From: Escherichia coli | GTDB taxonomy: Bacteria > Pseudomonadota > Gammaproteobacteria > Enterobacterales > Enterobacteriaceae | NCBI RefSeq assembly: GCF_029227855.1 | Contig: NZ_CP074356.1 | DNA: 64,000 nucleotides | Reading direction: 5' to 3' (one strand) | Notes under the pieces: generated by a model | The model's database searches: none | The model's input: the letters and a program-made list of their open reading frames with translations, nothing else | What the model was told of the DNA's origin: nothing | Program-made: the position numbers and the translations under genes | In this document: positions 19,381 through 43,294 of the stretch, in pieces | How the letters are laid out: the number at the start of each line of letters is the position of its first letter | Position numbering within the stretch: the first letter of the stretch is position 1

Positions 19381-21450
19381 ATGTCTGAGAAAACTTTTCT
19401 GGTGGAAATCGGCACTGAAGAGCTGCCACCAAAAGCACTGCGCAGCCTGGCTGAGTCCTTTGCTGCGAATTTTACTGCGGAGCTGGATAACGCTGGCCTC
19501 GCACACGGCACCGTTCAATGGTTTGCTGCTCCGCGTCGTCTGGCGCTGAAAGTAGCTAACCTGGCGGAAGCGCAACCGGATCGTGAAATCGAAAAACGCG
19601 GCCCGGCGATTGCCCAGGCGTTCGACGCTGAAGGCAAACCGAGCAAAGCGGCAGAAGGTTGGGCGCGTGGTTGCGGTATTACCGTTGACCAGGCTGAGCG
19701 TCTGACTACCGATAAAGGCGAATGGCTGCTGTATCGCGCCCATGTGAAGGGCGAAAGCACCGAAGCACTGCTGCCGAATATGGTTGCGACTTCTCTGGCG
19801 AAACTGCCGATCCCGAAACTGATGCGTTGGGGCGCAAGCGACGTGCACTTCGTGCGTCCGGTGCACACCGTGACCCTGCTGCTGGGCGACAAAGTCATTC
19901 CGGCAACCATTCTGGGCATTCAGTCCGATCGCGTGATTCGCGGCCACCGCTTTATGGGCGAACCGGAATTCACCATCGACAACGCCGATCAGTATCCGGA
20001 AATTCTGCGTGAGCGCGGGAAAGTCATCGCCGATTACGAAGAACGTAAAGCGAAGATTAAAGCCGATGCCGAAGAAGCAGCGCGTAAGATTGGCGGTAAC
20101 GCTGACTTAAGCGAAAGCCTGCTGGAAGAAGTGGCTTCGCTGGTGGAGTGGCCGGTCGTTCTGACCGCAAAATTCGAAGAGAAATTCCTCGCGGTGCCGG
20201 CTGAAGCGCTGGTTTACACCATGAAAGGTGACCAGAAATACTTCCCGGTGTATGCGAACGACGGCAAACTGCTGCCGAACTTTATCTTCGTTGCCAACAT
20301 CGAATCGAAAGATCCGCAGCAGATTATCTCCGGTAACGAGAAAGTCGTTCGTCCGCGTCTGGCGGATGCCGAGTTCTTCTTCAACACCGACCGTAAAAAA
20401 CGTCTGGAAGATAACCTGCCGCGCCTGCAAACCGTGCTGTTCCAGCAACAGCTGGGTACGCTGCGTGACAAAACTGACCGCATCCAGGCGCTGGCTGGCT
20501 GGATTGCTGAACAGATTGGCGCTGACGTTAACCACGCAACCCGTGCGGGCCTGCTGTCTAAGTGTGACCTGATGACCAACATGGTCTTCGAGTTCACCGA
20601 CACCCAGGGCGTTATGGGGATGCACTATGCGCGTCACGATGGCGAAGCGGAAGATGTCGCGGTGGCGCTGAATGAGCAGTATCAGCCGCGCTTTGCCGGT
20701 GATGACCTGCCGTCTAACCCGGTAGCCTGTGCGCTGGCGATTGCTGACAAGATGGATACTCTGGCGGGTATCTTCGGTATCGGCCAGCATCCGAAAGGCG
20801 ACAAAGACCCGTTTGCGCTGCGTCGTGCCGCACTTGGCGTGCTGCGAATTATCGTTGAGAAGAACCTCAACCTTGATCTGCAAACGCTGACCGAAGAAGC
20901 GGTGCGTCTGTATGGCGATAAGCTGACTAATGCCAACGTAGTTGATGATGTTATCGACTTTATGCTCGGTCGCTTCCGCGCCTGGTATCAGGACGAAGGT
21001 TATACCGTTGACACCATCCAGGCGGTACTGGCGCGTCGTCCGACTCGTCCGGCTGATTTCGATGCCCGTATGAAAGCGGTATCGCATTTCCGTACCCTGG
21101 ATGCAGCTGCTGCACTGGCGGCGGCGAACAAACGTGTATCTAACATTCTGGCGAAATCTGACGAAGTGCTGAGCGACCGCGTGAATGCCTCTACCCTGAA
21201 AGAGCCGGAAGAAATTAAACTGGCGATGCAGGTTGTGGTGCTACGTGACAAGCTGGAGCCGTACTTTGCGGAAGGTCGTTACCAGGATGCGCTGGTCGAA
21301 CTGGCAGAGCTGCGTGAGCCGGTTGATGCTTTCTTCGATAAAGTGATGGTCATGGTTGATGACAAAGAATTGCGTCTCAACCGTCTGACCATGCTGGAGA
21401 AACTGCGCGAACTGTTCCTGCGCGTTGCGGATATTTCGCTGTTGCAGTAA
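19381..21450 (+). CDS. glyS: Glycyl-tRNA synthetase beta subunit
   Basis: 689-aa ORF 9 nt downstream of glyQ. Confidence 0.95.
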
Positions 21451-21463
21451 TAACGCCGTTATT

Positions 21464-21494
21464 AAAAAGCCTGCCATCTGGCAGGCTTTTTTTA
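21464..21494 (+). terminator. Rho-independent terminator of glyQS
   Basis: GC hairpin gcctgcc-atct-ggcaggc followed by T7 run. Confidence 0.75.
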
Positions 21495-21775
21495 TTATCG
21501 CTAAATAATACAGCAACCTTTAATAATCTTCTGCTGAATAAAGATTATCTCATATATTAATTTTATGAGGTTTTTTTAGGATTATATCAAGGAGAAGAAA
21601 CAAACTTATTAAGCTAGAATAGCCACGGGTGCTTGAGACTGTTTGTCTCAGGTATTCACCGAAAGGCAGACAGAGAAAAGCCCCACCTGACTATAAATCA
21701 AAGTGAGGCTACCCTATGCCTGAACACCATAAGGTTAGCCTCTTACTCGTTGGAAATCAACACAGGGGGCTGGGA

Positions 21776-21928
21776 ATGCCGCAGAAATATAGATTACTTT
21801 CTTTAATAGTGATTTGTTTCACGCTTTTATTTTTCACCTGGATGATAAGAGATTCACTGTGTGAATTGCATATTAAACAGGGGAGTTATGAGCTGGCGGC
21901 ATTTTTAGCCTGCAATTTAAAAGAGTAA
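21776..21928 (+). CDS. hokA: Hok-family type I toxin (50 aa), locus not interrupted by an IS element
   Basis: MPQKYRLLSLIVICFTLLFFTWMIRDSLCELHIKQ...; the track ORF 21716-21928 adds an in-frame upstream ATG; GC hairpin ggcgggaa..ttcccgcc downstream. Confidence 0.8.
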   Translation: MPQKYRLLSLIVICFTLLFFTWMIRDSLCELHIKQGSYELAAFLACNLKE

Positions 21929-22057
21929 GAGTCTTCGGCGGGAAGTTATTCCCGCCTTTCTTACGGCGTTGCGCATTCTCATTGCACCCAAATTTATTTT
22001 TCACAAAAATAATACTAGATTTTATTACGCGATCGATTATTTATTTCCTGAAAAACA

Positions 22058-22092
22058 AATAAAAAAATCCCCGCCAAATGGCAGGGATCTTA
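22058..22092 (-). terminator. cspA transcription terminator
   Basis: On the minus strand an imperfect GC stem (tccctgcc / ggcgggga) followed by a T run, just 3' of the cspA stop. Confidence 0.55.
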
Positions 22093-22115
22093 GATTCTGT
22101 GCTTTTAAGCAGAGA

Positions 22116-22328
22116 TTACAGGCTGGTTACGTTACCAGCTGCCGGGCCTTTAGCGCCGCTTTCGATGGTGAAGGACACTTTCTGACCTTCGTCCAGAGAT
22201 TTGTAACCATCGTTCTGGATAGCAGAGAAGTGTACGAACACGTCTTTAGAGCCATCGTCAGGAGTGATGAAGCCGAAGCCTTTGTCAGCGTTGAACCATT
22301 TTACGATACCAGTCATTTTACCGGACAT
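22116..22328 (-). CDS. cspA: Major cold shock protein CspA
   Basis: 70-aa [24 protein letters not shown]... with RNP1/RNP2 motifs. Confidence 0.95.
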
Positions 22329-22487
22329 AGTGTATTACCTTTAATAATTAAGTGTGCCTTTCGGCGATATGGCGTGCTTTACAGATTTTGAAGCGTTAAA
22401 GGAATGTGCACTACGAGGGGTATCAACGATAACTCTTGAAGGGACTTGCCTTACTACACTGCTTTAATGGTCTGTACGTCAAACCGT
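22329..22487 (-). promoter_or_regulatory. cspA long 5' UTR (cold box / RNA thermosensor region)
   Basis: About 160 nt of untranslated leader upstream of the cspA start; extent taken from established knowledge of the cspA mRNA, not mapped here. Confidence 0.55.
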
Positions 22488-22608
22488 TGATGTGCATTAA
22501 GCCACGCATTGGCGGGTGATGCAACAATTATTTTTCATATTTATGATTAATCGGTTGGAAAACGGTCCTGTCATCAGGACCGTAAACAGCAATAAAGTGG
22601 ATAAAAGT

Positions 22609-41659: not shown

Positions 41660-42023
41660 AAAGTCCTGTCCAGAAAGAAGTCGGCCTCGCAAAAATGAAT
41701 AAACCCAGTTTCTCTTGCGCAACAGGTGGAGAAGTCGAATACGCAGTATGTAAAAAATGAGGCAACAGATTCACTGGGGAGGTCGCGAGGAGGCGCAATT
41801 CTACAAAATTGCGCATTTCACTACCAGTCTGGAGTCAGCCCGGATATGAACTGCAACTATTGCAAATAAAGAAATTAAGCTGGAAGGCATCGCGCAATGA
41901 GGAAGATTGCCGGGTGCTGACAGTAAAAAGCAATCGTAAAATCAGCGGCAAGCCGAAAGGGTTCCGGTGAGGCGCAATGTTGCGGGGGCTTTATCCCTGG
42001 TGGCATTGGTTGCTGGAGAGAGA

Positions 42024-42086
42024 AAACCCCCGCACGTTGCAGGTATGTACCTGACAACATAACGGGGGCTAATCTTGAACCTAGAC
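42024..42086 (-). ncRNA. Putative Rdl antisense RNA, copy 1 (approximate)
   Basis: Placed by analogy with known LDR loci, where the antisense RNA lies opposite the ldr leader; coordinates approximate, no ends mapped. Confidence 0.3.
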
Positions 42087-42134
42087 CACTCAAGAATAGC
42101 CGCGAAACGTTGTCATTACAACACAGGCGGCTAT

Positions 42135-42242
42135 ATGACGCTCGCAGAGCTGGGCATGGCCTTCTGGCATGATTTAGCGGCTCCGGTCATTGCTGGCATT
42201 CTTGCCAGTATGATCGTGAACTGGCTGAACAAGCGGAAGTAG
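42135..42242 (+). CDS. Ldr-family toxin peptide (35 aa), copy 1
   Basis: MTLAELGMAFWHDLAAPVIAGILASMIVNWLNKRK; single TM helix with basic C-terminus. Confidence 0.8.
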   Translation: MTLAELGMAFWHDLAAPVIAGILASMIVNWLNKRK

Positions 42243-42506
42243 CGTGTCATGTGGGCGTCAGGCTGCCGTAATGGCAATTTGCGCCCGGACCAGGCCGCAG
42301 GAGTGAAACTCTGCGGCCTTTTTCGTAAGAAAAATGCAACGGTTGCAAGCGGATAATATTCTGCGGAATGCGCAGCACAGAGTGAAGATGAGACGGATTC
42401 CGGAACAGAAAAACAGTCGTAGAATCAGCGTCAAGCCGGAAGGATTCCGGTGAGGCGCAATGTTGCGGGGGCTTAATCCCTGGTGGCATTGGTTGCTGGA
42501 GAGAGA

Positions 42507-42569
42507 AAACCCCCGCACGTTGCAGGTATGCACCTGACAACACCACGGGGGCTATTCTTGCATCCAAAC
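42507..42569 (-). ncRNA. Putative Rdl antisense RNA, copy 2 (approximate)
   Basis: Same position within repeat unit 2. Confidence 0.3.
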
Positions 42570-42617
42570 AATACAAGAATAGCCGCGAAACGTTGTCATT
42601 ACAATACAGGCGGCTAT

Positions 42618-42725
42618 ATGACGCTCGCAGAACTGGGCATGGCCTTCTGGCATGATTTAGCGGCTCCGGTCATTGCTGGTATTCTTGCCAGTATGATCGT
42701 GAACTGGCTGAACAAGCGGAAGTAA
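42618..42725 (+). CDS. Ldr-family toxin peptide (35 aa), copy 2
   Basis: Identical peptide; end of track ORF 42483-42725. Confidence 0.8.
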   Translation: MTLAELGMAFWHDLAAPVIAGILASMIVNWLNKRK

Positions 42726-42989
42726 CGTGCCATGCGGGCGTCAGGCTGCCGTAATGGCAATTTGCGCCCGGATCAGGCCGCAGGGGTGAAACTCTGCGGC
42801 CTTTTTCGTAAGAAAAATGCAACGGTTGCAAGCGGATAATATTCTGCGGAATGCGCAGCACAGAGTGAAGACGTGACGGATTCCGGAACAGAAAAACAGT
42901 CGTAGAATCAGCGGCAAGCCGGAAGGGTTCCGGTGAGGCGCAATGTTGCGGGGGCTTTATCCCTGGTGGCATTGGTTGCTGGAGAGAGA

Positions 42990-43052
42990 AAACCCCCGCA
43001 CGTTGCAGGTATGCACCTGACAACATCACGGGGGCCATTCTTGAACCTGAAC
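42990..43052 (-). ncRNA. Putative Rdl antisense RNA, copy 3 (approximate)
   Basis: Same position within repeat unit 3. Confidence 0.3.
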
Positions 43053-43100
43053 AACTCAAGAATAGCCGCGAAACGTTGTCATTACAACACAGGCGGCTAT

Positions 43101-43208
43101 ATGACGCTCGCAGAACTGGGCATGGCCTTCTGGCATGATTTAGCGGCTCCGGTCATTGCTGGCATTCTTGCCAGTATGATCGTGAACTGGCTGAACAAGC
43201 GGAAGTAA
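43101..43208 (+). CDS. Ldr-family toxin peptide (35 aa), copy 3
   Basis: Identical peptide; end of track ORF 42933-43208. Confidence 0.8.
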   Translation: MTLAELGMAFWHDLAAPVIAGILASMIVNWLNKRK

Positions 43209-43294
43209 CGTGTCATGCGGGCGTCAGGCTGCCGTAATGGCAATTTGCGCCCGGACCAGGCCGCAGGGGTGAAACTCTGCGGCCTTTTTCGTGC

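Follow-up and report, generated by a model that had tools for sequence, protein, structure and literature searches.

The uninterrupted glyS-cspA interval of an Escherichia coli strain very probably holds an intact wild-type hokA/mokA/sokA locus built for R1 hok/sok-like regulation

The hok/sok locus of plasmid R1 (parB) is the system for which the names of the RNA elements and the tac/fbi and tac/ucb pairing model have been described (PMC9841398). In the chromosome of E. coli K-12, hokA, hokC and hokE have been reported to be inactivated by insertion elements (PMC12214031; PMC7232551), and the AIEC strain NRG857c has been reported to have homologues of every hok locus, hokA among them, that are free of IS (PMC7232551). 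The IS-free hokA of E. coli C was studied by Pedersen and Gerdes in 1999 (Mol Microbiol 32:1090-1102), as summarised in a recent preprint, according to which this locus gives neither post-segregational killing with plasmid stabilisation nor activation by rifampicin (bioRxiv 10.1101/2025.08.07.668861). HokA is toxic on overexpression, and unlike in HokB-E, both key cysteines are encoded in HokA without RNA editing (bioRxiv 10.1101/2025.08.07.668861).

Here we describe the hokA locus of a 64,000-nt stretch of E. coli DNA (contig NZ_CP074356.1; hereafter the window). It has the same glyS-cspA position and the same gene as the IS-free loci of E. coli C and NRG857c, is likewise devoid of an insertion element, and shows nothing substantial that sets it apart from them. 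The glyS gene ends at 21450, with a terminator hairpin downstream of it at 21464-21491, while the 3′ neighbour of the hokA interval is cspA (22116-22328, minus strand), which together with its thermoregulator leader occupies 22061-22488 on the minus strand and gives an Rfam cspA match of 501 bits. The 681 bp from 21440 to 22120 are 100% identical to many complete IS-free genomes, for example EC93, in which the annotation of the interval comprises glyS, hokA, a small antisense ORF and cspA, and nothing more. A sequence-only reading had drawn attention to 21690-21960 as a hokA type I toxin locus; these coordinates fall inside the locus but cover only part of the transcription unit, whose limits are about 21615, at the promoter −10 box, and about 21996, at fbi and the 3′ end. 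The unit and its reading frames are as follows.

Positions 21627..21996, plus strand: predicted full-length hokA/mokA mRNA, with the 5′ end taken from the start of the Rfam model and an approximate 3′ end just past fbi.
Positions 21776..21928, plus strand: hokA toxin gene of 50 codons, with ATG at 21776, stop at 21926-21928, and Cys14, Cys29 and Cys46.
Positions 21716..21928, plus strand: mokA frame of 70 codons from the ORF listing, in frame with hokA and ending at the common stop codon.
Positions 21705..21708, plus strand: mokA Shine-Dalgarno (SD) sequence GAGG, 7 nt upstream of the ATG at 21716, aligned with GAGGC of the R1-type locus and missing from K-12.

The 50-codon frame between glyS and cspA is exactly that quoted in the sequence-only reading. 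It matched the Pfam family HOK_GEF (PF01848) with an E-value of 9e-24 and 83.2 bits (cut-off 22 bits) and the NCBIfam HokA equivalog model NF007290 with 131.9 bits (cut-off 89) over residues 1-50 of 50, and these profile matches together with the cysteines identify the product as a member of the Hok/Gef family and a HokA orthologue. The gene at the same position in EC93 (WP_001135738.1) is annotated as hokA, a label that RefSeq routinely gives to this gene. Upstream, the region 21627-21778 matched the Rfam sok family RF01794 with 124.9 bits (gathering threshold 59) over model positions 1-157 of 157, and the leader hairpins noticed earlier belong to this full-length match. A short frame with hairpins could in principle be a chance open frame in AT-rich intergenic DNA, and the short length of the frame is all that speaks for such an origin. 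Against it stand profile matches far over the curated cut-offs, the full-length covariance-model match, conservation of the frame in thousands of genomes and a fold z-score of −7.9 for the full-length RNA; a chance ORF is thus extremely improbable, and this explanation was rejected on the Rfam RF01794, Pfam HOK_GEF and NCBIfam HokA matches.

The ATG at 21716, which had been flagged as reminiscent of a mok-type upstream frame, indeed lies 20 codons ahead of the hokA ATG and in frame with it, and the 70-aa frame that it opens corresponds to K-12 mokA, whose remnant is annotated in K-12 as a pseudogene ending at the hokA stop. An overlapping upstream mok frame with its own SD sequence is therefore present, and its translation would be coupled to that of hokA if the locus behaves as R1 does.

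Several observations concern the neighbourhood of the gene. A 19-codon ORF at 21917-21976 on the minus strand, antisense to the hokA 3′ end and 3′ UTR, equals the RefSeq hypothetical protein WP_212591412.1 and corresponds to K-12 ysaE (b4793); its annotated version has 23 codons in other lineages. The gene at 22116-22328 (minus strand) is labelled cspE by PGAP/RefSeq in most genomes and cspA in others for the same protein (WP_000014594.1), an annotation inconsistency, the leader being a full Rfam cspA thermoregulator match. In strain 1579, about 390 bp of extra DNA with an ORF annotated as yidD (WP_001521571.1) lies between hokA and cspA, and neither the window nor any other locus examined has this insert.

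Elsewhere in the window, a 483-bp unit occurs three times in tandem at 41920-43292 (95% matches), and every copy has a full-length Rfam rdlD antitoxin match (42021-42086, 42504-42569 and 42987-43052). This makes the region an ldr/rdl type I toxin-antitoxin array in three copies, at a locus where K-12 presumably carries a single ldrD/rdlD copy.

The regulatory elements of the hokA locus were located by alignment with the R1-type plasmid locus, by the Rfam match and by folding, and are listed below.

Positions 21615..21620, plus strand: putative hokA promoter −10 box TAGAAT, 7 nt upstream of the start of the Rfam match, assigned by position and homology only.
Positions 21627..21638, plus strand: tac, 5′-GGGUGCUUGAGA, paired in the predicted folds, invariant in seven diverse loci and aligned with R1-type GGCGCTTGAGG.
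Positions 21679..21686, plus strand: ucb, AGCCCCAC, the anti-SD element for mok, paired in the predicted folds, with AGCCCC common to the R1-type locus.
Positions 21737..21745, plus strand: dcb-like element, AGCCUCUUA, complementary to the mok SD region, with TAGCCTCTTAC identical in the R1-type locus.
Positions 21937..21956, plus strand: GC-rich hairpin GGCGGGAA-GUUA-UUCCCGCC followed by UUUCUU, from the scan for terminator-like structures.
Positions 21977..21989, plus strand: fbi, UCUCAUUGCACCC, paired with tac and invariant in seven diverse loci.
Positions 21670..21725, minus strand: predicted SokA antisense RNA, with a 5′ end estimated to within a few nt.
Positions 21732..21760, minus strand: putative sokA promoter, with −35 TTGATT (21760-21755), a 17-nt spacer and −10 TAACCT (21737-21732).

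The downstream GC hairpin pointed out earlier is that at 21937-21956, and on the R1 model it is the presumed 3′ end of the processed (active) mRNA. The dcb-like element is paired with GAGGC in the Rfam consensus structure. Both promoters are putative and were placed by alignment with the R1-type locus; neither the hokA nor the sokA promoter reached the threshold of the consensus promoter scan. The hokA −10 box TAGAAT aligns with TATGAT upstream of GGCGCTTGAGG in the R1-type locus, and no good −35 box was recognisable for this promoter. The sokA boxes stand at the positions aligned with R1-type TTGCGC and TATCCT, the Sok promoter boxes of R1, which are separated by 17 nt; they are invariant in seven loci, yet below the scan threshold. 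The 3′ end of SokA (21670) was set by mapping the K-12 sokA pseudogene annotation on the window (21670-21704), and its 5′ end was put about 7 nt downstream of the −10 box. When the minus strand from 21730 to 21662 was folded, a stem-loop followed by a U-rich tail was obtained (−28 kcal/mol, z = −4.5), a predicted structure that fits a small antisense RNA. As to mutations of the kind that silence hok loci, the mok SD and start are present, and putative antisense promoter boxes were found through the R1-type alignment, although not at the strength that the consensus scan demands.

Compared with R1 (parB), the hokA locus shows the same order of elements, namely promoter, tac, ucb, mok SD and ATG, dcb with the putative Sok −10 box overlapping it, the putative Sok −35 box, the SD sequence of hok, hok itself, GC hairpin and fbi. 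The two share about 49% nucleotide identity, the same Rfam and Pfam families and the same predicted switch, and AGCCCC of ucb, GAGGC of the mok SD, TAGCCTCTTAC of dcb and the 17-nt spacer between the Sok boxes, putative in the hokA locus, are alike in both. They differ at the mRNA 5′ end, which reads GGGTGCTTGAGA in the hokA locus and GGCGCTTGAGG in the R1-type locus, and in the 3′ hairpin, which is GGCGGGAA...TTCCCGCC followed by a T-run in the former and GGCGGGC-GCAG-GCCCGCC followed by TTTT in the latter. In addition, mok of the hokA locus is in frame with hok and uses a common stop, whereas the R1-type mok frame is offset from hok; and the hokA locus is chromosomal, with IS-free hokA reported to lack post-segregational killing, whereas R1 is plasmid-borne.

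Folding of the predicted transcripts, in line with the earlier suggestion to look for fbi, tac and ucb in the leader, yielded all three pairings (tac/fbi, tac/ucb and ucb/mok-SD). The full-length RNA (21627-21996) had a minimum free energy of −139.8 kcal/mol (z = −7.9 versus shuffles), and its two ends were paired with each other. In this fold tac paired with fbi (21627-21632 with 21984-21989, and 21634-21638 with 21977-21981), a closure also seen in the centroid structure, and ucb paired with the mok SD in both the minimum-energy and centroid folds (21679-21686 with 21703-21710), while the hokA SD and AUG were buried in a long stem. In the 3′-trimmed RNA (21627-21962), tac (21627-21634) was paired instead with ucb (21678-21684), and the mok SD lost its ucb partner. 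The predicted exchange from tac:fbi to tac:ucb is that described for R1. On trimming, the mean unpaired probability rose from 0.15 to 0.22 for the mok SD and from 0.14 to 0.30 for the mok AUG, so that opening of the mok start in the computed trimmed ensemble is modest, and the SD/dcb target hairpin of the Rfam consensus was not formed in the minimum-energy fold of the trimmed RNA. The divergent UTI89 allele folded with the same tac:fbi closure.

Conservation was evaluated in a diverse set of seven loci that lack an interruption, taken from O157:H7, UTI89 and strains of environmental, chicken, mouse and clinical origin. Essentially no variation was seen among them in the hokA frame, fbi, the stem of the 3′ hairpin, the two sokA boxes or the part of the leader between +1 and the mok SD, whereas the interval as a whole differs by 2-4% between these lineages, which supports constraint on the RNA elements. 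Compensatory changes in the tac/fbi and tac/ucb pairings were sought in the same seven loci and none was found, because the elements do not vary. The sole variable patch of the leader, at 21710-21724, carries 6-7 substitutions around the mok start and lies where the 5′ end of SokA is predicted. In the window and in strain M8 this patch reads GCTACCCTATGCCTGAA, and in O157, UTI89 and others it reads GCCCCTCTATG(C/T)ATAGA, which changes mok codons 2-3; by these sequences the predicted antisense recognition region exists as two alleles.

Taken together, the glyS-cspA locus is, with high confidence, an intact and uninterrupted wild-type hokA/mokA/sokA locus built for R1 hok/sok-like regulation. 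What the sequence shows is which gene and family this is, that no IS is present, that each element exists and is conserved, and that alternative pairings are predicted; how this strain transcribes and processes the RNA, expresses SokA and responds to the toxin would follow the R1 paradigm. By that paradigm, a weak promoter would give rise to an mRNA of about 370 nt, in which pairing of tac at the 5′ end with fbi at the 3′ end and masking of the mok ribosome-binding site by ucb would keep the message inert. Slow 3′ trimming to the GC hairpin would remove fbi, tac would then pair with ucb, and the mok start region would be freed, allowing mokA translation and, coupled to it, translation of hokA into a 50-aa membrane peptide expected to damage the inner membrane. 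The short antisense SokA, transcribed from within mokA, would base-pair with the trimmed mRNA at its mok start region, blocking translation and triggering decay.

The state of the K-12 locus was then compared with that of the window. MG1655 hokA (b4455) has the same flanking genes, its frame and 3′ UTR are about 97% identical, and the K-12 protein has E35 and K47 where the window HokA has G35 and N47. As stated in the sequence-only reading, K-12 hokA is associated with IS150: in MG1655 a 1443-bp IS150 lies between hokA and glyS. In K-12 the hokA promoter and leader are thereby split from the coding region, mokA (b4647) and sokA (b4614) are annotated as pseudogenes and sokA is truncated, whereas all of these parts are intact in the window. 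The absence of any IS near hokA here was borne out both by the identity of the interval to IS-free genomes and by a search of the whole window for the IS150 terminal repeats, which were absent, a single match with one mismatch being at chance level. Alignment and reading of the junctions showed that the glyS-side flank of K-12 stops at window position 21704 and the hokA-side flank resumes at 21744. Besides carrying IS150, K-12 thus lacks about 39 bp (21705-21743), among them the mok SD and ATG, the putative sokA −10 box and the predicted 5′ end of SokA, and this loss at IS150 explains the annotation of mokA and sokA as pseudogenes in K-12. For the K-12 junctions, plain insertion of IS150 with duplication of 3 bp of the target was considered and rejected, the flanks reading ...CAAAGT+T and TACTCG with about 39 bp missing.

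The states of the interval were counted in 5426 complete E. coli genomes, a set that includes many laboratory K-12 derivatives and in which genomes were counted raw, irrespective of phylogeny. In this set, 21665-21780 was uninterrupted in 2800 of 5426 genomes, in agreement with 2830 for the whole 681-bp interval, and the K-12-type IS150/hokA junction, with IS150 in reverse orientation, was found in 1663. In a second class, exemplified by SCEC020022, IS150 has the opposite (forward) orientation and 3 bp (AAG, 21701-21703) are cleanly duplicated; it comprised 711 genomes by the right junction and up to 1133 by the left junction, a range given since the junction counts overlap slightly. The IS-free arrangement is therefore the commonest state of the interval and the one that keeps every element, and the uninterrupted locus is already known, having been described in 1999, so that any novelty that the sequence-only reading may have implied for the IS-free state falls away.

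Other variants of the interval were also seen. The second type of IS150 insertion occurs in loci 95.5-99.8% identical to the window, a distribution that points either to repeated insertion at one site or to dissemination by recombination. In strain 53 (NZ_CP048359.1) the interval is 100% identical except for an inserted IS1B, a third kind of IS there. Strain Z1323HEC0399, otherwise uninterrupted, reads AAAGTGTGTACTGCC where others read AAAGTGAGGCC (window 21703-21709); the inserted TGTACT, which agrees with the terminal sequence of IS150, abolishes the mok GAGG, and by its sequence this change looks like the scar of an IS150 that was later lost.

About 45% of complete genomes have IS150 within the 45-bp overlap of sokA and mokA, at 21701-21746 and in at least two configurations; these configurations, together with the one apparent IS150 end scar that removes the mok SD, were counted as evidence for repeated silencing. 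A reading in which the intact locus is a conditionally active module, costly enough to have been silenced repeatedly by IS150 in E. coli lineages, nevertheless seems unlikely to us. Were it true, there would be selection on hokA activity, or else a strong target preference of IS150, and not neutral decay, and strains like this one would keep a working HokA response.

Better placed, although still short of being the favored account, is the possibility of physiological silence despite an intact sequence: the locus would then be a relic, decaying or domesticated, that irrespective of SokA never yields enough toxin to be of consequence. The negative tests of IS-free E. coli C hokA for post-segregational killing and rifampicin activation, as summarised in the preprint (bioRxiv 10.1101/2025.08.07.668861), agree with such silence, as do the weak −35 region of the hokA promoter, the disruption of the locus tolerated in about 48% of complete genomes and the one genome with a small scar removing the mok SD. 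However, the leader, tac, ucb, fbi and sokA boxes are invariant against a surrounding difference of 2-4%, a strong conservation of RNA elements that argues for purifying selection and against plain decay. Moreover, none of the uninterrupted loci examined has a broken HokA frame, and HokA is a toxin when overexpressed (bioRxiv 10.1101/2025.08.07.668861). For R1 hok, one copy in the chromosome kills when Sok is absent (PMC9841398), and silence thus does not follow from chromosomal dosage alone. Our favored reading remains an intact hokA/mokA/sokA locus, the physiological output of which is probably low or conditional because the published tests of IS-free E. coli C hokA were negative.

The window presents a well-studied chromosomal type I toxin-antitoxin locus in its normal form, free of interruption, and by itself this matters little beyond correct annotation. 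The IS150 configuration of K-12 is a derived, broken state, which makes K-12 ill-suited as the reference for hok loci of the chromosome. What chromosomal hok/sok modules do is properly asked in a strain background such as this one, a question that the literature has already posed using IS-free strains.
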